Below, in pieces: positions 1,341-59,846 of a stretch of 64,000 nucleotides of DNA (within the stretch, counting starts at the first letter, position 1; every line of letters begins with the position of its first letter). The stretch comes from a virus, in the IMG/VR virus record IMGVR_UViG_3300005323_000046, positions 1-64,000 of that record; one strand, given 5' to 3'. The notes beneath the pieces were generated by a model, which saw only the letters and a list, made by a program, of their open reading frames with translations, had not been told where the DNA came from and did not search any database. Made by a program: the position numbers and the translations under genes.

Positions 1341-2083
1341 TTTCTTATCGTCCTTTCGTAATCCTCAAACCTTATCTTTGCAATTTTAGATCTATCAAAC
1401 ATCTTAATCACAAGCCCTTCCGGTCTTCCCAAGGCTCCATTATCTAAACTACATTGAGTTGTTTGTATTTTAGTTTTTAGCCAATCATAGACTTCTTGGA
1501 CGTTTCCATTTGGAACTATATCTTCACCTATTCTTGGGGTTAGCGGGATTCCGGATGAAATCAATTCAATTTCCTTGTAAAAATTTTGTCCTCCGTTATC
1601 TCTCCACGACGCAATCCGTTCTATTGGCATCTGCATAATTTTTTCTTGCTCAGGAATAAACGCAATATCAAATAGGCGACAGCTTAATTGTCCATTTCCT
1701 GTATATTGTTTACTGCTCTTTGTCGTCTTTCCGCCGTAAACTTCCGAATAGTATACGGTAAGTTCTCTTTGGGGAATAAGGTCTTCCGCTAAAGGTTTCA
1801 ACGTATCTACAATACCCAACTGTGGATTCCCAATAAGGTCTCCTTTGGCATACAATAATTCATCCCGAGAACCAATAATGTAGAATCCGTCTGGAAATAG
1901 AATTATTCTGCCATTTACACCATTTACTTTTTCAGTCAGAATAACTTTTTGACCCTCAAAATTTACCTGAATTTCATCCAGTAGCCGCCCGCGATTTTCT
2001 ATCTTATCTATCTTATGATAGGTTAATATGCTCGGATACTTTGTCATTGAATTAAGTCTTTCCAAATCTATTTCTTTTCCCAT
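1337..2083 (-). CDS. Rnl-like covalent nucleotidyltransferase (putative ATP-dependent RNA ligase)
   Basis: Motif I EKVNGVNGRI (KxNG), motif IV EGLVIKM, motif V AKIRFED in the expected order. Confidence 0.55.
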   Translation of the reverse strand: MGKEIDLERLNSMTKYPSILTYHKIDKIENRGRLLDEIQVNFEGQKVILTEKVNGVNGRIILFPDGFYIIGSRDELLYAKGDLIGNPQLGIVDTLKPLAEDLIPQRELTVYYSEVYGGKTTKSSKQYTGNGQLSCRLFDIAFIPEQEKIMQMPIERIASWRDNGGQNFYKEIELISSGIPLTPRIGEDIVPNGNVQEVYDWLKTKIQTTQCSLDNGALGRPEGLVIKMFDRSKIAKIRFEDYERTIRK

Positions 2084-2265
2084 AGTATATACCTCCTTGT
2101 TTTTCCTGCCTTTCCTTTTCTCCTGACTAATCCTCTTTCCGTAAGTGACCGTAAAATAAAAGCGACTTTTACGTTTCCTCTATTGCTTTTTATCTCACGA
2201 GTCATAAATGGTTTATCGGGAAGAAGTTTTAAAATTTCCTCTTCCTCTAGACTTAATTGTTTCAA
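2068..2265 (-). CDS. small basic protein, possible wHTH DNA binder
   Basis: 65 aa; basic C-terminus LVRRKGKAGKTRRYILWEKK. Confidence 0.35.
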   Translation of the reverse strand: MKQLSLEEEEILKLLPDKPFMTREIKSNRGNVKVAFILRSLTERGLVRRKGKAGKTRRYILWEKK

Positions 2266-2270
2266 TTACA

Positions 2271-2822
2271 TTACTCCCATATGATTTTATAAACATAGGT
2301 TATCTGATCTTCAAATTCTCCTTCCGGCTCGTCTCTGACCTCTTCCAATCTATTTACTGCTGCTTGTTCCTTGAACATATCAATTGCGGCCTCTTCCCAT
2401 TCCTCCATAATTTCCTGGACGGCTTCGTAATATCTCCAATCTTGATCCGGAAAATTTTCTTCTACATCCTCAAAGTCGAAGTCGTTTTCTTCTGCCCATT
2501 CTCTTCTTGCATCAGCGCGGACTTCTGAAAGGGTTTCACTCATAGCTCCTGAATCGTATAATTTATCCTCATTGAAGAATTCCATCAATCCAAATTGGGA
2601 TACATGACTCGTTCCTGGAGGATAATAATTTCCGTTTTGATGCCAGGTTACTTTAGTTGCCCAAGGATAATCAACATTTCCACTTTCAAAAACCTCCAAA
2701 ACCGCAGGCTGAATATGAATCCCGAAATAACCATTTTGATCGCCTACTTCATCAAACACTTCATTTGCAAGAGTCTCTATTACTTTGTTTTGATTCAAAA
2801 CTATATAGTAAATCTTTTCCAT
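2271..2822 (-). CDS. hypothetical acidic protein
   Basis: 183-aa ORF heading the minus-strand block; divergent AT-rich promoter region upstream. Confidence 0.45.
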   Translation of the reverse strand: MEKIYYIVLNQNKVIETLANEVFDEVGDQNGYFGIHIQPAVLEVFESGNVDYPWATKVTWHQNGNYYPPGTSHVSQFGLMEFFNEDKLYDSGAMSETLSEVRADARREWAEENDFDFEDVEENFPDQDWRYYEAVQEIMEEWEEAAIDMFKEQAAVNRLEEVRDEPEGEFEDQITYVYKIIWE

Positions 2823-2983
2823 GAATTTATCATCTCCTTTACAATATACTATACATTGATAGAATAAATAGTTTACGCTCTAGCCGACTTTGATCTTCCC
2901 GAAGGAGGGTTTGAAGAGGCGGACGAATCTTAAATACTAACATTTTTTTAAATTTACTTTTTTTATTATAAAACTTCCGTTAA

Positions 2984-2998
2984 CTATAAATACTATAG
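2984..2998 (+). promoter_or_regulatory. promoter-like motif CTATAAATACTATAG
   Basis: TATAAATA-type copy of the recurrent intergenic motif; 30 nt upstream of the 3028 start. Confidence 0.35.
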
Positions 2999-3027
2999 AC
3001 TATACTATACATATTGGAGATAAGAAT

Positions 3028-3288
3028 ATGATGAGAATTTTTGAAGTAAAGAATCGGGAAGGATGTTCAGAACTTAAATTTAAGGGAACGTGGGTAGAAT
3101 GTGTTAAAGCGATCCAATATTGGTATGACGATTTAGAGGATTATGATGAAAACGAAAAGAGGATAGAATATAAAGCAACCATTGATCCTTATGATGTCAC
3201 GGGAAATTATATGAAAATAGGAGAATCCATAAGAGGGGCGTATGAAGGGGCAGATTCATACGAATGGGAATTACATAGAGTAGCTTAA
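3028..3288 (+). CDS. hypothetical protein
   Basis: 86-aa ORF; GGAG 8 nt upstream. Confidence 0.4.
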   Translation: MMRIFEVKNREGCSELKFKGTWVECVKAIQYWYDDLEDYDENEKRIEYKATIDPYDVTGNYMKIGESIRGAYEGADSYEWELHRVA

Positions 3289-6840: not shown

Positions 6841-9243
6841 TCACCACGCCTCTCCCTCGGATTCTATTGTCATCTGTTCTCCGTTGGTTACAGATTCTCC
6901 TTCTTCATCGTAATTAAGCATTTGTTTGTTGTCACAATATATTCTCAGCCATTTTTTTCCTCTGTGAACCCCTTTAGGTTCTACTACGATTGAATAGATT
7001 CTTTTTAAATCGGGCTCAATTCTCTTTAATCTAGTAAGTAATTTAGATGCAGTTGTTGGTAATTTTTTATCTATATTGTTAGAATCAATTACCCATTGAC
7101 TGAAGTATTTACCAAATAAGTGGTCTGTAGAAATTCCCCAACCTACATTATTATTGAAATCTATATCCCCGTATTTTCTTACGAAATCGATAAAGAATTC
7201 GGCAACCGGTTCTGCTTCTAGAGAGGTTTGACACATTCCGGTTTGATTTAATCTGTAAGCGACTTCAAAATCTGGTATCATATTTAGAACCCGAGAGATA
7301 TATTTCCCTACAGATGCAAATGTGGTGAGCCGGAACTCAGACATTTCTCCTTTTCTAGGAATTCCGTCTTTCAAATATCCCTGGACTAGAGCAAGAATGG
7401 CACCGAATATCTCAGCCCTATAAGTTTCAAATTCCTCATTCAGAAATTCTTCTGATAAATAGCTTCCCTCTGGTCTGGAAATTTCAATGCTAACCGTTCT
7501 TTCTGCGAGATCTCCAGCTCCAGAATCGAATATTTGGGAGTTAATAGCTGTAATAATAAGTTTTGATCTTATATCAATAAGAACTTGATCATTGGTAGTA
7601 TATAGTTCTCTGGTAGGAATTACGCCGCCAGTAACCACATTACACAGAACATCTCCGGTTGCCCTGTCGATTCTGCTTATATTGTCAAGTACAGCAACCG
7701 CATTATGAGACAGTAACCCTATTAAATAATTTAAATCTTGGGGTTTATTAACTAGTAATTCTGAAGAATTACCTTCTACTGGGTCTAAAGTTCTTTTAAT
7801 TATGCGGCCCATAAAAGATTTGCCTGATCCACGAGACCCACAAAGAAGGAGTATTGGACTTTGAGCCCAGGGGAGTAGCGAATTTACTATCCATGTAATT
7901 AATAGAACTTTTTGGGAACTGTCTTTTACGTTTATAATATTAAATAATTTAAAAATGTTGTTTATATCTTTTTTACTTGGTACGTTTTGGACTCCCTGAT
8001 TAGTTTCTCGTATAAAAGTCATATCTGAGTATGGGTAAACTCCTAATCCACTAGGAGTAATTTTTACAAAATTATTATTTCCGAGATCATACCAAATAGC
8101 TTCTTTATCTCCTCCGACTCGTCTAAAAATCTTTGCTTTTTCTCCATATGCCATACATTTTCCGTCAAAATATCGGGCAACATAGGTTAATACACTATCT
8201 GATGGGAGTTTGTCTATGACTTTTTCTGCGGTAGTAGCCATCCAATATCTTGTGATTTTAGAGTTTATAGGGAGAAGGTTGATCCCAATATCTGAATAAT
8301 CTCTTAATTTAAAATAACTGTTATTGTTATGATCCCTTACAAGAGAAATATTATTTTCTACGATTTCTATTACGTTGTCAGTAATAGTTTTCTTTTGTTT
8401 CTTTATCCCTGGAAAATCCGCAAAAATCTCATCGTCAGTTTTATTGGTATAAGTTTTAATTAATGAGAACAAACCACCAGATGCATTACAGGAATGACAA
8501 AAATATCCATCTGCATATATACTCATTGATGGTTTTGTATCCTCGTGGAATGGACATAACACTTGAAGATATCTTCCACCGTCAAAAGCGATCTGAAGAT
8601 TATGATCTCTTGCCCATTGAAGAGCTGTTGGTATACCTTTTGCGGGTTTTATATCCGGCTTGATAATGGGCAATATAGATTCTAAATGTCTAAGAATATC
8701 GTCAATTTCTTCTGGCTCTTCCGAATTGATCCAATGGCGTATGAAATTTCTTTTTGTCCCCGCTCTTTCCTCGTCTTCTTCTTGGTTAATTTCTTCTTGA
8801 CTTAGATCGCGAGAAGGTAGAATAGCATATCCGTCTATTCCTTTTATATCTACTGCAACACCATTTATTCTTGTATGTGATTTTGGAATTACAGTACTTT
8901 TTATAAGGAAAGATATCCCGCCACTGGGGGTTCTCATTAAACATTTTTTAAAATCGGAAAGATACAAATCATATAAATTTGGGTCATCAATATCTACCAA
9001 GACTAAATTATCATATCCTGTGAGAACCGCCCAGTCAGCACGATCAAATTGAGCCAACCAGTGTAAAATTTGGTCTTCAGAAGGTTTATTTTCTTCGCTG
9101 CTTTTATATTCAGCCCATTTCACAAAAGGTCTTTTTTCATCTAGCTCGCCTGTTTTTTCGTTTACATGTCCTTGCGGGCGTATGGGGATAATACCCCAAC
9201 CTTTGTCAATATATTGTTGAATGAGAGAGACCATTGGAATCAA
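6841..9243 (-). CDS. primase-helicase (prim-pol N-domain, DnaG-type CHC2 zinc finger, SF3/D5-like helicase)
   Basis: CHC2 finger CPFHEDTKPSMSIYADGYFCHSCNASGG; Walker A LLLCGSRGSGKSF; probable true ATG at 9234 (MVSLIQQY). Confidence 0.8.
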   Translation of the reverse strand: MIPMVSLIQQYIDKGWGIIPIRPQGHVNEKTGELDEKRPFVKWAEYKSSEENKPSEDQILHWLAQFDRADWAVLTGYDNLVLVDIDDPNLYDLYLSDFKKCLMRTPSGGISFLIKSTVIPKSHTRINGVAVDIKGIDGYAILPSRDLSQEEINQEEDEERAGTKRNFIRHWINSEEPEEIDDILRHLESILPIIKPDIKPAKGIPTALQWARDHNLQIAFDGGRYLQVLCPFHEDTKPSMSIYADGYFCHSCNASGGLFSLIKTYTNKTDDEIFADFPGIKKQKKTITDNVIEIVENNISLVRDHNNNSYFKLRDYSDIGINLLPINSKITRYWMATTAEKVIDKLPSDSVLTYVARYFDGKCMAYGEKAKIFRRVGGDKEAIWYDLGNNNFVKITPSGLGVYPYSDMTFIRETNQGVQNVPSKKDINNIFKLFNIINVKDSSQKVLLITWIVNSLLPWAQSPILLLCGSRGSGKSFMGRIIKRTLDPVEGNSSELLVNKPQDLNYLIGLLSHNAVAVLDNISRIDRATGDVLCNVVTGGVIPTRELYTTNDQVLIDIRSKLIITAINSQIFDSGAGDLAERTVSIEISRPEGSYLSEEFLNEEFETYRAEIFGAILALVQGYLKDGIPRKGEMSEFRLTTFASVGKYISRVLNMIPDFEVAYRLNQTGMCQTSLEAEPVAEFFIDFVRKYGDIDFNNNVGWGISTDHLFGKYFSQWVIDSNNIDKKLPTTASKLLTRLKRIEPDLKRIYSIVVEPKGVHRGKKWLRIYCDNKQMLNYDEEGESVTNGEQMTIESEGEAW

Positions 9244-10379
9244 GACCTAACCTTTAAAGAGGTCAACTGTCCACTAATAAATTCGTGGGCTTGCGGCTCC
9301 GCAAAAAATCGGGCCACGATGGGCATATTGACTGATACCCGTGCGGCTATATTTCGAGCTGCGACTATATCTGCTTGGCCAGAGAAGCCACAACAGACAC
9401 AGCGAAATTCATCTCTAGTGGGGCGGTTAGATTGAGAGATGTGATGGCAGATTGGACACTCTTGCGAGGTGTAGGCGGGATTAATATAAACAACTGGTAC
9501 ACCAACAATAGCCGCCTTATAGTTAATGAACTGTTGAATCTGATTAAAACTCCAAGAATTATGTCTATGTCTCTGAGCCTTGGTTTTAACCGTTGTCCCC
9601 TCTCGGATACCTTTGAGATTTTCAAGGGCGATCAAAGAAGAGGTGTCTTTGGCTTTCATGACGAGTTTCTTAGAGATGCAATGATCGGTATCTTTTTTAA
9701 ACCTAGCCTCGCGACCAGAAAGCTTTTTGAGATGTTTTTTGGCACTATCGGTGCCACAACGCTGAAGATTGGATTTAAGTATATCGAGTTTAGATCTGTT
9801 TTTATCGATTTTTTCACTGGAGAATATTTCTCCCACAGAGTCTACGGCGATATTTTTAATTCCGAGATCGACTCCAAGGACATTTTTCGGAGTAATAAGA
9901 ATGGGATTGGGGGATTCAGTCACAATGCAGAGGTAGAATTTTTTGTTCTTAAAGATCAGGTCGATTTGACCTCTAATCTGGTTTATTTTGGACATATGAT
10001 AATTACAAATTTTAACGGGGATTTTAATCCTTCCATAAACGGTCAACAATGAAACTATATTGGGCTCCTTCCAAGATAAAATTCTCTGGTCATATACAAT
10101 TGCCCCATTAGAGTTGAAGATCGGTTTGATAGACTTATTTTGTTTATAGGTTTCGCATACTTTGGAAATGACTCTAATAGCCATTTGAGAGGATATATTA
10201 AACTTTTCTCTAATATCTCGGTAAACGAGGGGTTGTAGTGTAAATTTGTTGGATATATATGTATTAAAGGCAACTTCTGCCACGTAATTACAAGCGGCAT
10301 TGAATTGATACATAGTTTTATGGAGCGCTTTAGCTTGTTCCGAATCGGTAATAATTTTAATTTTAAGAGTTTGTATCAT
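9240..10379 (-). CDS. tnpB: IS200/IS605-family TnpB (OrfB) RNA-guided nuclease
   Basis: RuvC-I VDLGIKNIAV, RuvC-II LIALENLKG, zinc finger CPICHH..CVCCGF, RuvC-III ADIVAARNIA; all catalytic residues present. Confidence 0.85.
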   Translation of the reverse strand: MIQTLKIKIITDSEQAKALHKTMYQFNAACNYVAEVAFNTYISNKFTLQPLVYRDIREKFNISSQMAIRVISKVCETYKQNKSIKPIFNSNGAIVYDQRILSWKEPNIVSLLTVYGRIKIPVKICNYHMSKINQIRGQIDLIFKNKKFYLCIVTESPNPILITPKNVLGVDLGIKNIAVDSVGEIFSSEKIDKNRSKLDILKSNLQRCGTDSAKKHLKKLSGREARFKKDTDHCISKKLVMKAKDTSSLIALENLKGIREGTTVKTKAQRHRHNSWSFNQIQQFINYKAAIVGVPVVYINPAYTSQECPICHHISQSNRPTRDEFRCVCCGFSGQADIVAARNIAARVSVNMPIVARFFAEPQAHEFISGQLTSLKVRS

Positions 10380-10442
10380 AGTAGTGTAGGTCCTTTGAGT
10401 GGGTGAGCCTTAAGTTTTGTCTTAATCCTTTAAATAGGTTTT

Positions 10443-10483
10443 GCTTGGAGTTTATAATCTTCTAAATTATAAATAATCCAAGC
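10443..10483. repeat. nested perfect palindrome GCTTGGA..TTTATAAT..ATTATAAA..TCCAAGC
   Basis: 7-bp outer and 8-bp inner inverted repeats, read directly; lies in the strand-switch intergenic region. Confidence 0.7.
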
Positions 10484-10485
10484 GC

Positions 10486-10504
10486 AAGATTAAAATAGTA
10501 TTAG
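10486..10504 (+). promoter_or_regulatory. promoter-like motif AAGATTAAAATAGTATTAG
   Basis: Copy of the recurrent motif; 16 nt upstream of the 10521 ATG. Confidence 0.45.
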
Positions 10505-10520
10505 TTCAATTATTAAAATT

Positions 10521-11072
10521 ATGTCTAAAAGCAAGAAATTTACAGATATGGAATCCAAGAGAATTCTGGGTTATACGAGCGATTCCCAAGAAGATGATCT
10601 TCTAGGGGAACAGCAGGAAGTTAAGAAAGAATTCTCTCCCGCGACTCTTCTCGTCCAAGATATAATAAATAGTATTATAGAAATTGGAAGACCTCCTTAT
10701 TCTGATACTCTATTTGTAGATTCAGGTTTTTCTTTCCAAGAACCAAAAAAGAAGGAAAGGACATTTGGACCTAGCGGGTTGATGTTCCCCAAAAATTGTT
10801 ATGTAGGTGTTTTCCCTTCCAAATATCAATTTTGTTCTCGTGACGCGCTTCTTGCTTACTTAAGTGGCTTGGAAACAACAGATCCTTATGAAGTTCGCGA
10901 GGCAGTAAAAGAAAAATTCTTGGGATGTCCTATTGGGATTGCCGGAGGATATAAAGAGGGGGAGCCTGGAGCTACATATAATGTAGTTTGGATGGATGAA
11001 AAAACGAGAATTTATTATAGTCCGTCTAGAAAAGAGATTATAGATATTGTACCGTTGGTGATCATAATTTGA
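10521..11072 (+). CDS. hypothetical protein
   Basis: 183-aa ORF. Confidence 0.45.
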   Translation: MSKSKKFTDMESKRILGYTSDSQEDDLLGEQQEVKKEFSPATLLVQDIINSIIEIGRPPYSDTLFVDSGFSFQEPKKKERTFGPSGLMFPKNCYVGVFPSKYQFCSRDALLAYLSGLETTDPYEVREAVKEKFLGCPIGIAGGYKEGEPGATYNVVWMDEKTRIYYSPSRKEIIDIVPLVIII

Positions 11073-36084: not shown

Positions 36085-37152
36085 ATGGAATCTAAAGTTA
36101 GAAGGCAAGATGGAATATCAACCTATCGAAAACAAGGCGATGGACTGTTTATTGGGGATGAATTGCTCTGTACGGTTAATGAATTATATGACGACTATTG
36201 TAATAATAATTTACTTCAAAAAGAAATCGCCGAGAAATACGATATTAGTGAATTTGGGTTACGAAAATTGTTAAAGTTTGCGGGTATTTCAAGGAGGAGC
36301 AAATCCGAGGTAGTATCTAAACAATGGAAGGTTAAGCAAAGCGGTATTGACCCCGACGGGATTTATCATAAAGGCAAAATGCTTTGTACAAAACAAGAGT
36401 TATATGATTTATATTGGAAAGACGAAATGCGAGTAGAGGACTTAGGAGAAAAATTTGGTATTTCGAGACACATGATAAGTCATATTTTAAAAAGATATAA
36501 TATCCCTATAAGAACGGCTGGGGAAATTAGGAAGTTAACGCATAAGAAAATAAAAAAGCTTTTAAATCCAAATTATTTATATAAACTAAATAAATATCCC
36601 ATTTGTTCTAAAGAAGATTTTCAGAGGTTATATTATGATGAAAAAGAAACTCTTGAAAATCTTGCTCATAAATTTAATACTACTACAATTACATTAAAAA
36701 GGCAAGCAAAAAGTGCGGGTTTCGTTCTTAGAACTGCTAGGGAGCAGATGATTTTGACTTTTGAAAATCGAGATTATACCGGAGAAAAACATCCTTGTTG
36801 GAAAGGAGGGATAAGAGAGTGTGAAGGGTATGTCTACATTTGGCATCCAACACACCATTTAGCAGATAGACATGGTTACGTTAGAGAACACGCTTTGGTT
36901 ATGGAAAAGAAGTTGGGGAGGAGCGTAGAAAAGGGCGAAGTTATTCATCATATAAATTTCATTAAAAACGATAATTCTATGAAAAATTTATATGTATATC
37001 CAAATAACGGAAGTCACAGAACAGTTCATATGAATCTTAGTGGAATAATGCACGATCTTTTTGACGAAAAAATCATTCTTTTTGAGGACGGGAAGTATAT
37101 AGTAAACAAGAATCTAATATCAAAATTGTCAGACGAGAATAAGGAGGCATAG
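36085..37152 (+). CDS. HNH homing endonuclease with N-terminal DNA-binding repeats
   Basis: C-terminal HNH-like motif GYVREHALVMEKKLGRSVEKGEVIHHINFIKNDN; repeated helix-turn-helix-like segments at the N-terminus. Confidence 0.6.
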   Translation: MESKVRRQDGISTYRKQGDGLFIGDELLCTVNELYDDYCNNNLLQKEIAEKYDISEFGLRKLLKFAGISRRSKSEVVSKQWKVKQSGIDPDGIYHKGKMLCTKQELYDLYWKDEMRVEDLGEKFGISRHMISHILKRYNIPIRTAGEIRKLTHKKIKKLLNPNYLYKLNKYPICSKEDFQRLYYDEKETLENLAHKFNTTTITLKRQAKSAGFVLRTAREQMILTFENRDYTGEKHPCWKGGIRECEGYVYIWHPTHHLADRHGYVREHALVMEKKLGRSVEKGEVIHHINFIKNDNSMKNLYVYPNNGSHRTVHMNLSGIMHDLFDEKIILFEDGKYIVNKNLISKLSDENKEA

Positions 37153-46389: not shown

Positions 46390-46444
46390 TAGATCAAGAT
46401 GAGGACCAACAACTATAAATACCGACGTGACAATATTTTTCTGT

Positions 46445-46528
46445 GCCATCTTAGCGAAGTTTGGAAAACGCGAGAGACTTAAGATCTCTTCCCGCAGGGG
46501 TTCGTCGGTTCAAATCCGGCAGGTGGCA
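46445..46528 (+). tRNA. tRNA-Leu (anticodon UAA), class II with a long variable arm
   Basis: Folded by hand: 7-bp acceptor stem GCCATCT/AGGTGGC, 3-bp D stem, anticodon stem AGAGA/TCTCT with loop CTTAAGA, variable arm CCCGCAGGGG, T arm GTCGG-TTCAAAT-CCGGC, discriminator A; no encoded CCA. Confidence 0.75.
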
Positions 46529-46608
46529 TACCCATAAATTTAAATACTATCCCCTAATATTTAATATTATCCTCATCCCTTTTGGGATGTAATATGGATG
46601 TGTTTTAA

Positions 46609-49680: not shown

Positions 49681-51390
49681 GTGAATGAAGGAATGGACAG
49701 AATATGTACCCGTAAAGCGCGAGATTCTAAAGACAAAATAGTCGTGCAGGAGAAACTAGATGGCTGTGTGCCATATCGGACAATGATTATAACGTCAGAA
49801 GGCAGAATCCCAATAGGAAAAATAGTCGGGAAAAGAATGCCGGTAGAGATCGCAAGCTATAATTTAGAAAAGGAAATCATAGAATGGAAACCTATTGAAG
49901 AATATCATAAATATGTCAATACAGATAAACCACTTATAAGAATTTTAGTTAAATCTAAAAAGCGCGGGAACCCAATATGTAAAATTGTATGTACCCCGAA
50001 TCATCAATTCTTTACTGATACGGGGTACGTAGAAGCAAAAGATTTATTACCAAACCAAATTGTATACCAATTTTCGGATAAATTAGATTATATTACTAAG
50101 CAAATAGTTCTAGGAACTCTCTTGGGAGACGGATCGATTAGTCGATCGTGTCCACAAAGTCCAAATGCCAGATGCGCTATTGTGTTTGGACACTGCGAAA
50201 AACAAAAAGAGTATTATGAGACTAAATGCGAAATTTTAGGAAATTTGATTTCTGGTAAAGACATTAGACGTGGTGGTTACGAAGGGAGTACGAATATTTA
50301 CCGTGCCCATACTCACGCAACAATGGGTCTGGATAAACTTATAAGAGAACATTGTTTAATAGATAACAAAAAAGGGGTCACTGAAAAATGGGTAAATGCA
50401 CTTGATCCGTTAGCCCTCGCTATTTGGTATCAAGACGACGGATCAAGTACATTTAGTAAAGAACAACGTCCTAGGCTCCATTTTGCGACAAATGGCTTCT
50501 CTTGGGAAATGGTCGAAAAATTAAAAGACTGTTTAAAAAATCGCTTCGGTATCGATAACGAGATCTTTGATTACAAAGGTCCCACTATTGCCGTAACCGC
50601 AGACGGAACAGAAAGGTTGTTCGGAATTATCGCCCCATATATTTCAGATTCAATGAAATATAAAATTTTTGAAAATTTCAGGAATATTCCGTGCATCTTA
50701 AACAATTTGGTACCGAATAAACCCTTGAACGGGATTATAGAAACAGAAGTAGTCAGGACCGAATCGAACGTTAAAGTATGGGAAATGCCTAAAACGCAGT
50801 ACGACCTTACCATTAAAGATAATCACAACTATTTTGCTGGAGATATTTTAGTACACAACTCGTCATGTGCAGTAGCACGAATTGATGGAATTTTAACACC
50901 AGTAACCCGTAAAGGTTGGCAGGCAAATACATCTAAATTTAAACAACATAGATTGTTTTCCGACTGGTTCTATAAACATCAGGATGAATTTGAGTTTCTA
51001 GAGGATGACCAAAGACTTTGTGGAGAATGGCTGGCCCAGGCTCATGGGACACGCTATAAATTACAGCACGAACCGTTTGTGGCATTTGATCTCCTTGGTC
51101 CCGGTGGAGCTAAAACGGTAGAAGTATTCAACTCTATTGTTCCGTCATTCTTCCCTAGACCTTATATTCTTCATGAGGGAGGCCCAATAACCACTCAAGA
51201 AGTAGATGCCTTAATTGGGAAATTTGGTCATCATGGAGCGCTAGAGCTTGCCGAAGGAGCAGTCTATAGAGTAGAAAGAGAAGGAAAACTTGATTTTATG
51301 GCTAAATATGTACGAAAAGAAAAGAAGATTGGACAATATTTAGGAGATCATGAAGAAATATGGAATGAAGGATTAGAAAAATTTCTATGA
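49681..51390 (+). CDS. Rnl/ligase-like nucleotidyltransferase interrupted by an intein
   Basis: Extein motif I EKLDG|S is split by the intein; after the intein come motif III CGEWL, motif IV EGAVYRVE and motif V AKYVRKEK; the spliced extein would be ~204 aa. Confidence 0.65.
   Translation: MNEGMDRICTRKARDSKDKIVVQEKLDGCVPYRTMIITSEGRIPIGKIVGKRMPVEIASYNLEKEIIEWKPIEEYHKYVNTDKPLIRILVKSKKRGNPICKIVCTPNHQFFTDTGYVEAKDLLPNQIVYQFSDKLDYITKQIVLGTLLGDGSISRSCPQSPNARCAIVFGHCEKQKEYYETKCEILGNLISGKDIRRGGYEGSTNIYRAHTHATMGLDKLIREHCLIDNKKGVTEKWVNALDPLALAIWYQDDGSSTFSKEQRPRLHFATNGFSWEMVEKLKDCLKNRFGIDNEIFDYKGPTIAVTADGTERLFGIIAPYISDSMKYKIFENFRNIPCILNNLVPNKPLNGIIETEVVRTESNVKVWEMPKTQYDLTIKDNHNYFAGDILVHNSSCAVARIDGILTPVTRKGWQANTSKFKQHRLFSDWFYKHQDEFEFLEDDQRLCGEWLAQAHGTRYKLQHEPFVAFDLLGPGGAKTVEVFNSIVPSFFPRPYILHEGGPITTQEVDALIGKFGHHGALELAEGAVYRVEREGKLDFMAKYVRKEKKIGQYLGDHEEIWNEGLEKFL
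49765..50859 (+). mobile_element. intein with a LAGLIDADG homing-endonuclease domain (365 aa)
   Basis: Starts with Cys (CVPYRTMIITSEG), block B TPNHQF, LAGLIDADG motifs LGTLLGDGSI and LAIWYQDDGSS, ends ..ILVHN followed by the +1 Ser. Confidence 0.75.
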
Positions 51391-55823: not shown

Positions 55824-58800
55824 GTGATTAAATTGGATCTTAAAACTCTTTCTCAAGAAATTCGAAACTGTAAAAAATGTTCCCTTTGCAAATCTAGAAA
55901 AAATGTTGTTATCGGTCGCGGTTCACAAACTCCAGAAATACTATTTATCGGAGAAGGACCCGGAGAATCGGAGGACATCGAAGGAAAACCTTTTGTTGGT
56001 AGATCTGGAATGTTACTAGACCGAGCTATTTCCGAGACGGGAATAAAGAACTTTGCAATAATTAACATCATAAAGTGTCGTCCAGAAAATAACAGAAAAC
56101 CAACAAAAGAAGAAATTGAAGCTTGTTCTACCTGGTTGGAACAGCAACTAAATCTTCTAAATCCTAAAATAGTAATTTTACTCGGGAATACATCGTTAAA
56201 TTACTTCTTCCCAGATAAAACAATCACGCGAACAGTCGAAGAAACAACTTTATCTGGAAAAACATTCACGAAAGACGGAAGAAGATTTATCGCTATATTT
56301 CACCCGTCGTACATCTTACGTGGAAAAATGCCCGTTGCAGATTATGTTAAAATCTTCGAGCGTGTAAACTTTTTTCTTAAAGCTGGATCGTCATGTAGCC
56401 AAATTACGCCAGAGCAATCTATAACCGATCCACTTCCCAGTCCTTTAAGATCTCCTATTCCAAACGGTCCTCAACCAATTACTCCGCTTCCTACCGGATA
56501 TTCAATAAAACAAAGATATGTGCCGCTACATACTCATTCCGAACACGGAAGCGTCGGCGACGTTTTCCGGACTCAAGATGAAATGGCAGAAGATCTATTT
56601 CAAAAAGGATTTAAAGCATGTGCCATAACAGATCATGGCTCTCTTTCTGGCCTTCCTTATTTTCAGAATGCTCTTAAGAAAAAAGGAATCAAACCCATTA
56701 TTGGTTTAGAAGCTTACATAGAAGAATCCGAGAAGAAACAGAGCCACCTTGTTCTTCTTGTTAAAAATGAAATAGGATACAAAAACCTATTAAAACTTCA
56801 CACAATCGCAAAAGAACACGTCCATAAAGTATTCAATAAAGTGTTCCAGAAAATTCCTCTTGATGAGATTTGTAAACATTCAGAAGGATTAATCTGTAGC
56901 ACCGCGTGTGTTAGTGGAACAGTGGCACAAAGATGGAAAAGAGGAGATAATCCAGAACCCATTATACAAAAACTCCAAGAAGCGTTTGAAGAGGATCTTT
57001 ACGTCGAGTTAATGCCGAATAGACTAGAAGAACAAATAAGGTTTAACGAATATATAATTAATGTAGCAAGAAAATATAATATTAAACCAATAATTACTAC
57101 CGACTCTCATTACAATTCGCCAGAAGATAAGCATTATCACGATCTTGTAAAAGCAAATGAATGGAGAAAAAAGATTACAGATAAAATTGGATTCTCGGAC
57201 GATACATTTTGTAATTTAACTTGTGACCAAATAGAATCCCTATTAAAAACATGTCATCCCAAAATATATCCTATTATGGAGGAACTATTCGCGAATACCT
57301 TAGAAGTAGCAAACAAGTGTACTTTTGAATTACCGTCAAATCTAGGGGATACTTTGCCTGGGATTGAAGAGGAAGCAAGAGAAAAAATATTAAAAAGAAT
57401 AGATATTGAAGGTTATACTAAAAAAAATAACTACGATCCTTTAATTGTAAACGAAAGAATAAAAAAAGAGGTAGATCTGTTAACCTCCAGAAAATTTTTT
57501 AATTATTTTGATAAAGTCATGTATATGGTTGATTATGCAGATTCTCATGATATCCCGAGAGGACCTGGAAGAGGCTCGGTAGGCGGTTCCCTACTTGCAT
57601 ATTTGTTAGGAATTACAAAGGTAGATCCTCTAAGATTTAACACATTGTGGGAAAGATTTTTAACTCCAACTCGAACACCAGATATTGATATGGATTTTAG
57701 CGCTAAAAAGAGAGAAAGTATAATTGGAAGCTTAAGACTGGAATATGGACCCACAAACGTGTCTTATATCATGACATTTAACGAGTGGTCCGACAAATCA
57801 GCAATTAAGGATGTCGCAAGAATTTACAACGTTCCTCTATCTGAAGTGAATAAATTTAACAAAGAACTCTCTACTAAGACCGCGGAGAATCTTAAAATAG
57901 AGGATATAATTCTTACATCTGAAACTGCCGCGGAATTTGCAAAGAAATATCCTGAAGTAATAGATGCTGCTGTTAAACTAAAAGGAAAAATTAGACATAT
58001 AGGACTCCACGCAGCAGGGGTAGTAATTTGCAAGGACCTGGAAAGTACAATTCCAACAGAAATATACGATAAAGGAGACATAAAAAATTGTCTCGCTGCA
58101 AGTTTTGAAAAAGATATGTTGGAGCGTTTAGGTATTATTAAATTCGACGTCCTGGGAATCTCCGTACTAGATGTAATCGACGGAACATTAAAATCATCTG
58201 GACTTGGATGGGATATTTTACCGGAGGATTATGCTGATCCCGATGTATTTAATCTTTTAAGATCTGGAAAAACTTCAGGTGTTTTCCAATTTGGATCTCA
58301 ATTAATTACAGATTATCTAAGACATTTAAATGTCGATAGGTTTGAAGATCTTCTAGCTGCAAATTCCCTCTGCCGCCCCGGACCATTAAACGGAGGAGAA
58401 GCAGCAAGATATGTTGAAAGAAAAAATGGAGCAGAATGGGATTACGATCACCATCTGCTAGAAAAGGTAACTAACGAGACGTTAGGAGTTCTAATATACC
58501 AAGAACAAATCATGAAAATCGCCAATATAATCGGCGGATTTTCTATGATAGAAAGTGAAAAATTCTTAAAACTTGTCAGTAAAAGCAAAGGAAAAGAGGC
58601 GATTCAAGAAAAATATGACCAATTCTTGACAGGAGCAATATCAAATGGAATGCCGGAAGAAATAGCCGAACATCTATTTCAAACAATGTTGGAATTTGGA
58701 CGTTATAGTTTTAATATGATTCATTGTATAGAATATTCTATGCTCGGTTATTGGACAGCATGGTTGAAATTGTATCACCCTCTTGCGTTTTATTCGTCTC

Positions 58801-59846
58801 TTATTAATGTAGAATCAGATGAAGTTCAGTCTCTGTCCTTTGTGAAGGAAGCAATTGATTCAGGAGTGGTAATTAAACCTCCCAGTGTAGAATCTCCGTC
58901 AGAATTGACCACTTTTGATAAAAGTAAAAATATAATTTATTTAGGATTAAACAAAGTCAAGGGAATTGGCCCAGAAGAGATAAAAAAGGTTCTTGCCGCA
59001 GGAGACAACTTTGACAAGATAAAGAAAATTAAAAAGAATGTCTTCCAAACGCTCGTAGAGGTCGGTTATTTAGATTCTATAGAGAAGAATCGCAGGCAAT
59101 TATTAAGTGGCAAGGAACTCACTAAGAACACTCTGTGGGCGTGGTCCTCGGAACCGAATACAAGCGACGACTGGTCTGAGGAGGAAAAGATGTTTAGGCT
59201 CCGAAAGTCTTTGCCCTGGCCTAGATCATACGAGGAATTACCCAAAATCAAAAACGAGTCTTTTAGAAAGCCACTAAGTTATTTGAAATCTGAATCTGTA
59301 GAAAATAAAGCAATTCTTTCCGTAGGATGGGTTTATGATCATAAAGCTTTCAGCAGTAATGGAAAAACTTCGTATGTTCTAAATTACGAGGACGGAACCT
59401 CAAGAGTTACCTTGAATTTATCCGCCGTAGTTTCAAGAAGACACAAAGAAATCGTAGATAGAATTGTTAAAGGAGAACAAAAGAATCCTTTGATATTCTG
59501 TCTCCAGCCCTATTACATGAATAGAGGCCACATAGAAGTTAGAGAGGGAAAACTACAAATACTATGGATAGGTAACATAGAGGATGAAATGTCTAAGAAT
59601 GTATTAAGAGGACTGGAAGGAGATACGGAGATTCTAGGACCTAGAGAGTTCTTAGTCACAAATATCAGTTACGGAACTTCTAAAGCTGGTAATGGATTTG
59701 CTTCGATAGAATGCGTAGATAATACAGGGAACGTGACTTACGGAGCTTTTATGTTAAGGGACTCTTTGGCAGCTCCACAATTTGGAACAATTTTACACGG
59801 TAGCTGGAGCGTATCCAATAAAGGTTCTTTTTTTAGAGGTGAATAA
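55824..59846 (+). CDS. dnaE: DNA polymerase III alpha subunit fused to an N-terminal family-4 uracil-DNA glycosylase domain
   Basis: UDG family 4 motifs GEGPGESED and HPSYILRG with Fe-S cysteines; Pro-rich linker; PHP domain HTHSEHGS; Pol III alpha core GPGRGSVGGSLLAYLLGIT; 1340 aa; GTG start. Confidence 0.9.
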   Translation: MIKLDLKTLSQEIRNCKKCSLCKSRKNVVIGRGSQTPEILFIGEGPGESEDIEGKPFVGRSGMLLDRAISETGIKNFAIINIIKCRPENNRKPTKEEIEACSTWLEQQLNLLNPKIVILLGNTSLNYFFPDKTITRTVEETTLSGKTFTKDGRRFIAIFHPSYILRGKMPVADYVKIFERVNFFLKAGSSCSQITPEQSITDPLPSPLRSPIPNGPQPITPLPTGYSIKQRYVPLHTHSEHGSVGDVFRTQDEMAEDLFQKGFKACAITDHGSLSGLPYFQNALKKKGIKPIIGLEAYIEESEKKQSHLVLLVKNEIGYKNLLKLHTIAKEHVHKVFNKVFQKIPLDEICKHSEGLICSTACVSGTVAQRWKRGDNPEPIIQKLQEAFEEDLYVELMPNRLEEQIRFNEYIINVARKYNIKPIITTDSHYNSPEDKHYHDLVKANEWRKKITDKIGFSDDTFCNLTCDQIESLLKTCHPKIYPIMEELFANTLEVANKCTFELPSNLGDTLPGIEEEAREKILKRIDIEGYTKKNNYDPLIVNERIKKEVDLLTSRKFFNYFDKVMYMVDYADSHDIPRGPGRGSVGGSLLAYLLGITKVDPLRFNTLWERFLTPTRTPDIDMDFSAKKRESIIGSLRLEYGPTNVSYIMTFNEWSDKSAIKDVARIYNVPLSEVNKFNKELSTKTAENLKIEDIILTSETAAEFAKKYPEVIDAAVKLKGKIRHIGLHAAGVVICKDLESTIPTEIYDKGDIKNCLAASFEKDMLERLGIIKFDVLGISVLDVIDGTLKSSGLGWDILPEDYADPDVFNLLRSGKTSGVFQFGSQLITDYLRHLNVDRFEDLLAANSLCRPGPLNGGEAARYVERKNGAEWDYDHHLLEKVTNETLGVLIYQEQIMKIANIIGGFSMIESEKFLKLVSKSKGKEAIQEKYDQFLTGAISNGMPEEIAEHLFQTMLEFGRYSFNMIHCIEYSMLGYWTAWLKLYHPLAFYSSLINVESDEVQSLSFVKEAIDSGVVIKPPSVESPSELTTFDKSKNIIYLGLNKVKGIGPEEIKKVLAAGDNFDKIKKIKKNVFQTLVEVGYLDSIEKNRRQLLSGKELTKNTLWAWSSEPNTSDDWSEEEKMFRLRKSLPWPRSYEELPKIKNESFRKPLSYLKSESVENKAILSVGWVYDHKAFSSNGKTSYVLNYEDGTSRVTLNLSAVVSRRHKEIVDRIVKGEQKNPLIFCLQPYYMNRGHIEVREGKLQILWIGNIEDEMSKNVLRGLEGDTEILGPREFLVTNISYGTSKAGNGFASIECVDNTGNVTYGAFMLRDSLAAPQFGTILHGSWSVSNKGSFFRGE

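Follow-up and report, generated by a model that had tools for sequence, protein, structure and literature searches.

Why should an uncultured virus carry a gene for the RNA-guided nuclease TnpB directly against the start of its primase-helicase gene, and what could that gene do there? The locus lies in IMG/VR record IMGVR_UViG_3300005323_000046, of which positions 1 to 64,000 were analysed (this whole 64,000-nt stretch is the window in what follows), and an earlier note on the same DNA had offered two answers: a very recent insertion sequence (IS), or a TnpB domesticated into the replication operon. Here, we find that tnpB belongs to a transposase-less element of the IS200/IS605 type, that the element sits in the primase leader at a TCAC target, that its transposon ends have decayed with its reading frame and guide-RNA scaffold intact, and that related viruses lack it. 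We hold this anatomical and evolutionary account with high confidence. Building on it, we propose that the immobilised gene is co-transcribed with the primase and acts as a homing nuclease that does not depend on the transposase TnpA, and for this whole statement, function included, we estimate a probability of about 0.5.

That tnpB is an insertion, as the earlier note had supposed, was borne out by comparison with related genomes. Relatives were gathered from public viral and metagenome contigs in a scan with the primase N-terminus, and all counts and absences given from it refer to the matches listed. None of these primase relatives (72-91% amino acid identity) carries tnpB, and in all of them a short intergenic region directly precedes the primase ATG. 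Five tnpB-less virus lineages show the empty site TTCAC/CTCTTTA... (the slash marks the insertion point), and because they do, the ends of the element can be placed to the base: lineage L001 reads aaggtTCAC/ctctttatagg where the window reads aaggcTCAC[element]ctctttaaagg. Over a longer stretch, the close empty lineages L001, L121 and L125 read ...cctatttaaa(N24)aaggTTCAC/CTCTTTATAGGTAGGTTAGGtttacaATG, with L122 and L126 as variants, and the window reads ...cctatttaaa(N24)aaggCTCAC[1141 nt]CTCTTTAAAGGTTAGGtcttgattccaATG. The insertion point lies between a conserved TATA-like, promoter-like element and the primase ribosome-binding region. All close empty sites contain TCAC. The right junction has TTGAC and no second copy of TCAC. 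By these empty sites and by the left flanks of the element family, the target is TCAC and not the TTAC-like motif that had been expected. The description of the insertion as flush with the primase holds for the open reading frame (ORF), whose stop lies 5 nt from the primase, but not for the element itself, which ends (GTTGAC) at 9262, 27 nt upstream of the ATG. The insertion recurs, with 100% identity over 4.3 kb, in contigs from four samples, and the matches listed in the metagenome scan include no empty allele of the same strain. A scan of IMG/VR for the empty-site pattern returned the contig of L001 together with L119; the latter was discarded as a chance match, having no similarity to the window. 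Against GenBank phages, blastn of the locus gave no match and tblastn of the primase gave a 31% helicase-domain match in a Microbacterium phage and nothing else, so the virus has no cultivated relative there.

The inserted gene encodes an intact TnpB. The protein scores 184 bits against NCBIfam guided_TnpB (cutoff 100) and, in Pfam, exceeds the cutoffs of both Cas12f1-like_TNB (5e-21, 75 bits) and OrfB_IS605 (32.2 bits). Its closest solved structures are Cas12f and TnpB chains, and its RuvC I, II and III and zinc-finger motifs align residue for residue with those of solved Cas12f 9nzq. A 29-sequence family alignment shows no variation at the RuvC triad D171/E253/D337 or at the zinc-finger cysteines C308/C311/C327/C330, and the window protein retains all 93 invariant columns. 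The complete motif set claimed for this gene from its letters is thus present, and so is the claimed lack of a tnpA: the element holds tnpB only, and Y1_Tnp matched none of the 46 window ORFs of 95-200 aa. The spacing that had been read between the two genes is also correct, with 5 nt between the tnpB stop (TGA, 9242..9240) and the primase ATG (9234..9232). Because the relatives begin at this same ATG, it is the real start, and the ORF lister's choice, a TTG at 9243, was rejected. The annotated tnpB ORF extends past the element, its final seven codons and stop (9261..9240) being viral leader.

To which family does the element belong, and which of its features are its own? Homology searches returned 2,050 TnpB homologs at E<=1e-3. 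The closest relatives share 75-77% amino acid identity (maximum 77%) and come from Methanothrix metagenome-assembled genomes and IMG/VR viral contigs, with the closest cellular homologs, at about 75%, in Methanothrix/Methanotrichaceae genomes. Relatives were carried by 24 IMG/VR viral contigs, which an alignment-based scan was required to find, as a single-protein pattern scan of IMG/VR for tnpB returned nothing. About 65 distinct copies (L008-L118) were read at the DNA level and share a common anatomy. TCAC stands directly 5' of essentially all readable copies (one exception, TCAT); the left end spans about 100 nt and includes a hairpin as well as a TATA-like box; and the right end reads ...CAAGCC-[hairpin]-GGTA(G/A)TTGAC (...GGTAGTTGAC), after which the copies diverge completely. 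In 52 of 57 relatives, the 125 nt upstream of the ATG contain a left-end hairpin with a folding energy of -8 kcal/mol or lower. This count is from an energy-based scan; searching by likeness to each copy's own right-end hairpin undercounted (15/50), the two hairpins often being different. The right-end hairpin is present in all relatives. The family stop is a TAG or TGA within the terminal TAGTTGAC, or in the hairpin just before it, and because the stop sits inside this terminal motif the guide-RNA scaffold is wholly coding. The elements therefore have no non-coding 3' end, and the C-terminal tail of TnpB is set by the hairpin sequence. These tails vary across the family, and the tnpB of L050 also reads through its terminus, so the read-through tail of the window protein is probably unimportant. 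The relatives, like the window copy, are tnpB-only, with left ends about 100 nt upstream of tnpB, and the whole family is consequently non-autonomous. It invades viruses repeatedly (24 IMG/VR loci). One full-length relative with 72% amino acid identity and a complete left end (L013, positions 2001-3141, ENA ERZ27313159 contig; also L014) lies between the portal and major-capsid genes of an uncultured virus. The window element is a member of this standard IS200/IS605 tnpB-only family; what sets the window copy apart is that it has been immobilised and joined to a replication operon.

The guide-RNA (omega RNA) scaffold was found where the earlier note had placed it, in the 3' end of tnpB. An RNAalifold consensus of 24 copies has three stems with 29 pairs, 18 of which show compensatory changes; inconsistent entries at two pairs of the terminal helix come from the window. 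A covariance model built from 30 relatives, with the window excluded, has a single match in the window, at full length (9341..9262, 86.2 bits, E 1e-15). By comparison, the model gives 96-98 bits for the nearest relatives and 60-90 bits for many genuine copies. Rfam, searched at gathering thresholds and at E<=1, returned nothing on the region, and no curated omega-RNA family covers this scaffold. Second matches of the model, downstream of or apart from the main tnpB, were seen in L018 (4590-4710, 45.9 bits) and L100 (3899-3977, 63 bits) and may be solo right-end/guide-RNA remnants or second copies. Much of the family shares a T6 run (GATTTTTTGCG, window 9302-9307, minus strand) in the stem B loop. 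As oligo-T tracts act as transcription terminators in archaea, the run could attenuate both completion of the guide RNA and read-through into the primase.

Is the insertion then recent and still mobile? Its exact junctions, with the family target and right end, and the absence of tnpB from relatives would suit such an event. The state of the ends contradicts it. In a MAFFT alignment with six close relatives, the left end has a 73-column gap over the hairpin (ggcccacgaatttattcgtggg), aggaattgg... and aagtatttat, and the energy scan found no left-end hairpin in the window. Because this hairpin is gone, TnpA could neither excise nor copy the element. The 23 nt left of tnpB were also considered as a diverged duplicate of the target flank, and this was rejected: TCAAAGGACC fits the left-end consensus TCCAAGGAGGCC at 9/10 positions (2-nt gap allowed) versus 6/10 for the flank, and the remnant and duplicate readings alike leave the left end without a hairpin. 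At the right end, the terminal hairpin shares the type of the closest relatives, L039-L041 (CCCACGAATTTATTCGTGGG), whose 9-bp stem has an energy of -14.1 kcal/mol; the window stem is 4 bp (-4.9 kcal/mol). Two of its three substitutions break stem pairs, and stems A and B are unchanged. The third turns the family TAG into CAG at 9269..9267, and translation therefore runs on to the TGA in the viral leader. The G+C content of tnpB (38.9%) has moved 5-6 points from that of its relatives (44-45%) toward that of the virus (36%), the TnpB lineage of the window has a long branch, and no known relative exceeds 77% protein identity. Together with the lack of a tnpA, these features tell against the very recent insertion offered by the earlier note, and we regard continued mobility as extremely improbable. 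Of the hallmarks of IS200/IS605 elements, the locus has the target-specific insertion without target-site duplication (TCAC) and lacks subterminal hairpins at both ends, the left one being absent and the right one degraded. Judged by these features, the window copy is a derivative of the family and not a functional member of it.

With its own promoter deleted, how might tnpB be expressed? The TATA-like box upstream of the element occurs at the same distance from TTCAC in tnpB-less relatives (cctatttaaa in L001/L121 and in L122, ccttaaata in L126) and is probably the promoter of the primase operon. By archaeal promoter geometry, transcription would start about 23 nt downstream of TATTTAAA, at or next to the TCAC, near 10406, and the element, having lost its own promoter, would come first in the primase transcript. 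Between tnpB and the primase, neither a sigma-70-like promoter nor an intrinsic-terminator-like site was found on the minus strand, which makes read-through from tnpB, and with it co-transcription of the two genes, plausible. The view that the primase has no promoter of its own and is read through from tnpB is thus upheld as to the missing signals and plausible as to the read-through. The divergent gene upstream of tnpB starts at 10521.

TnpB guides reportedly consist of the 16-20 nt that flank the right end of an element, as described by Karvelis and colleagues in 2021, and because the guide follows the right end we predict it to be 9261..9242. This segment is primase leader and ends 8 nt before the ATG; primase codons, which the earlier note had set beside the guide-proximal end, are not part of it. 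When TCAC followed by the guide sequence was searched in the window, the only match was the resident site, which bears TGAC in place of TCAC and should be protected for that reason. The predicted target with its transposon-adjacent motif (TAM), TCAC-CTCTTTAAAGG... (TCAC-CTCTTTAAAGGTTAGG...), would be the uninterrupted allele.

We propose the following history and mechanism. A non-autonomous tnpB-only element, from a family abundant in Methanothrix/Methanotrichaceae genomes and present in several uncultured viruses, inserted by canonical single-strand transposition directly 3' of TCAC in the primase-helicase leader. The copy was then immobilised, as a 73-nt deletion took the left-end hairpin and its promoter, the right-end hairpin gained two pair-breaking changes, and the stop in the terminal TAGTTGAC was lost. 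As the first cistron of the primase operon, tnpB would now probably be transcribed from the primase promoter. TnpB, with a guide RNA whose guide is the primase leader, could cut the uninterrupted allele of co-infecting tnpB-less relatives. The break would then either be repaired with the tnpB-bearing genome as template, so that the relative gains tnpB, or just put the competitor out of action. Co-transcription, RNA production, nuclease activity and homing are steps that we infer. Spread of this kind has been named TnpA-independent 'non-restorative homing' and does not require the left end. Homing needs the nuclease and its RNA, and this fits what the window element has kept and lost. TnpB-driven, TnpA-independent spread of IS605 insertions has been described in multicopy plasmids (PMC11870625, as summarised in PMC13565253), and the 2026 review gives non-restorative homing as shown for plasmids and proposed for co-infecting phages (PMC13565253). 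The viral locus resembles the plasmid case in being a multicopy replicon, in that the target is the uninterrupted allele, and in needing no transposase. It differs in that the plasmid elements are complete and reside in bacteria, whereas here the carrier is a virus, the activity is predicted, and no cleavable allele occurs among the listed relatives. A bolder version, in which the locus would be a natural viral RNA-guided gene drive against uninterrupted alleles, tnpB would be retained for that reason despite its missing left end, binding or processing of the shared mRNA by TnpB at the primase ribosome-binding region would couple the amount of nuclease to primase-helicase synthesis, and seed differences in relatives would be escape variants, is speculative and, in our judgement, rather doubtful.

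Several observations weigh against the homing proposal. Every empty-site relative among the matches listed has a mismatch, insertion or deletion within the first 12 guide positions, and no cleavable target was seen among them; the alleles at the guide-matching site read CTCTTTATAGGTAGG, CTCTTCGAGGTTAGG and CTCTGTAAAGAGG, differences that could reflect escape or simple divergence. The window protein has 10 substitutions at 135 columns conserved at >=96%, versus 0-3 in close relatives, and unique amino acid changes are 3-5 times more numerous in its lineage than in neighbouring ones, an excess that would be compatible with relaxed constraint. Pairwise dN/dS of 0.08-0.115 between the window and its relatives equals the values within the family and counts as a sign that the gene is still constrained, but it mostly reflects the history before insertion; because dS is saturated (1.3-1.7), the time since insertion is not isolable. 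If the RNA needs its guide-proximal hairpin, the weakening of that hairpin may leave the nuclease blind. Finally, the host assignment from TnpB is uncertain, because the G+C content of the virus (36%; GC3 26-31% in large genes) is far below that of the Methanothrix contigs with the closest TnpB relatives (50-55%, flanks of L039-L045), and the viral polymerase is a bacterial-type DnaE.

Could the element simply be an inert relic, which transposed, lost its ends and is decaying, with TnpB inactive and its frame still open only for want of time, or owing to the polar effect that premature stops would have on the primase across the 5-nt gap between stop and start? The damage to both transposon ends, the lost stop codon, the surplus of unique and conserved-site substitutions, and the lack of a cleavable target among the listed relatives favour that explanation. 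It fits less well with the preservation of all 93 invariant family columns, RuvC triad and four zinc cysteines included, and with the mostly conservative nature of the deviating substitutions, none of which is catalytic. The frame is open over 1.1 kb, with no stop or frameshift, despite its drift toward A+T, which is unlikely under neutrality over the divergence that the G+C shift implies. RNA stems A and B and the last 60 nt are the best-conserved DNA of the gene (identity to L039/L041 is 95% over these 60 nt and 60-90% over the remainder), a pattern that selection for keeping the frame alone does not predict. We consider a relic possible, if on the whole unlikely.

Another alternative is a domesticated regulator: TnpB would bind or process the scaffold in a polycistronic mRNA, cover or sever the ribosome-binding region of the primase, and so tune primase synthesis, with DNA cleavage irrelevant. 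The predicted guide includes the conserved AGGTTAGGT, which lies a short way upstream of the primase ATG; tnpB, no longer mobile and without a promoter of its own, depends on the primase promoter for expression; and TnpB processing of its own mRNA into guide RNA has been described (PMC10278001). Relatives express the primase without tnpB, however, and the arrangement occurs in one lineage only. The domestication envisaged by the earlier note, with conserved synteny and a decayed RuvC in relatives, does not match the data either, since the relatives lack the gene and the RuvC is intact. TldR proteins, some of them prophage-encoded, are reportedly TnpB-like DNA repressors that have lost the RuvC catalytic residues (Wiegand and colleagues, 2024), and are the known exapted TnpB regulators. 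Like them, the window protein is a TnpB relative out of its transposon context, fixed beside a gene matched by its guide; unlike them, it keeps D171/E253/D337, and its resident site has TGAC and no TAM. A dead nuclease of the TldR type is ruled out by the intact triad, and a regulatory role in general seems improbable to us.

Returning to the homing nuclease, which we prefer, we compared the locus with the mobile elements that it resembles. With tnpB-only (IS1341-type) members of IS200/IS605, for which ISDra2 and IS608 are the models, it shares insertion 3' of a fixed tetranucleotide (here TCAC) without target duplication, a right end in a related but different motif (TTGAC), a tnpB with RuvC triad and zinc finger, and a guide RNA encoded at the 3' end and reading into the flank; members of its family also have similar subterminal hairpins at both ends. 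It differs in that the window copy, without a left hairpin and with a weak right one, is no TnpA substrate; in that the stop of the whole family lies within the last 8 nt of the element, leaving the scaffold entirely coding; and in that the window ORF extends seven codons into the flank, with a viral promoter probably replacing its own. The likeness to free-standing homing endonucleases of phages, such as the T4 Seg and Mob enzymes, lies in a selfish nuclease gene wedged among conserved replication genes, in an expected effect of converting or excluding co-infecting relatives, and in the company of a LAGLIDADG intein and HNH endonuclease genes in the same window. Presence or absence of tnpB varies among relatives, and all listed empty alleles differ from the guide in its first 12 positions; cleavage of the allele without the gene, as by a homing endonuclease, is a prediction. 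The difference is that recognition would here be by an RNA guide and a TAM, and that self and non-self would be told apart by the presence of the insertion.

TnpB is common in phage and archaeal-virus genomes, where its role is mostly unknown: 295 GenBank phage records hold a homolog, and TnpB has been noted in Methanoperedens elements and Thermus phages. The locus is a clean natural case in which transposon function is gone (no left end, no transposase) and the nuclease gene and scaffold persist, probably under a viral replication promoter. The predicted target is specified to the nucleotide, and whether TnpB alone can serve as a viral homing or exclusion nuclease, a function so far shown only for plasmids, could be tested here directly. 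The compactness of this TnpB family (about 1.2 kb, with scaffold and stop inside the coding sequence or terminus) may also interest engineers of small editors. Coordinates of all features of the locus are collected in Table 1.

Table 1. Features of the tnpB-primase locus in the window.
Feature	Position	Strand	Remarks
tnpB coding sequence	9240..10379	-	ATG at 10379, TGA at 9242..9240; 379 aa including read-through tail
Primase-helicase gene (Prim-Pol, CHC2 zinc finger, P-loop helicase)	6841..9234	-	Cistron downstream of tnpB
TATA-like box TATTTAAA, inside aaaCCTATTTAAAgg	10429..10436	-	Conserved in tnpB-less relatives; now also upstream of tnpB
Target / transposon-adjacent motif TCAC	10403..10406	-	Directly 5' of the element
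tnpB-only IS200/IS605-type element	9262..10402	-	1141 nt; ends from empty-site comparison
Left-end remnant ccactcaaaggacctacactact	10380..10402	-	23 nt, without hairpin or the element's own TATA box
Guide-RNA (omega RNA) scaffold core	9262..9341	-	Embedded in the tnpB 3' coding region
Scaffold stems	A 9340-9335/9326-9321; B 9317-9310/9301-9293; terminal hairpin 9290-9269	-	
Decayed right-end (terminal) hairpin	9269..9290	-	Substitutions versus the L039-L041 type: 9275 C>A, 9270 G>A, 9269 T>C
Predicted guide segment CTCTTTAAAGGTTAGGTCTT	9242..9261	-	Primase 5' leader including the conserved, ribosome-binding-like motif AGGTTAGGT

Beyond this locus, other genes of the virus bear on its host and on its load of nucleases. 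Judging by the TnpB relatives and the TATA-like promoters, the hosts could be Methanotrichaceae-like archaea, a placement with which the 36% G+C and the DnaE-type polymerase fit poorly. The polymerase is part of a 1,340-aa protein (55824-59846, plus strand) in which an N-terminal family-4 (archaeal-type) uracil-DNA glycosylase is fused to a bacterial-type DNA polymerase III alpha subunit (DnaE). Such a combination in one protein is unusual, and a DnaE would not be expected in a virus that its TnpB relatives link to archaea. A LAGLIDADG homing endonuclease resides in an intein that splits an RNA-ligase-like gene (49681-51390, plus strand; Pfam LAGLIDADG_2 1.7e-24, Intein_splicing, RNA_ligase), and is a second selfish nuclease element of the viral genome. 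Two HNH_3 endonuclease genes were also identified, one at 36085-37152 (plus strand) and one among the ORFs of 95-200 aa; the 355-aa HNH_3 protein has in addition a sigma-70 region-4-like helix-turn-helix. Free-standing nucleases of the homing type appear to be numerous in the replication module. A single tRNA gene, for tRNA-Leu with anticodon TAA, is located at 46444-46529 on the plus strand.

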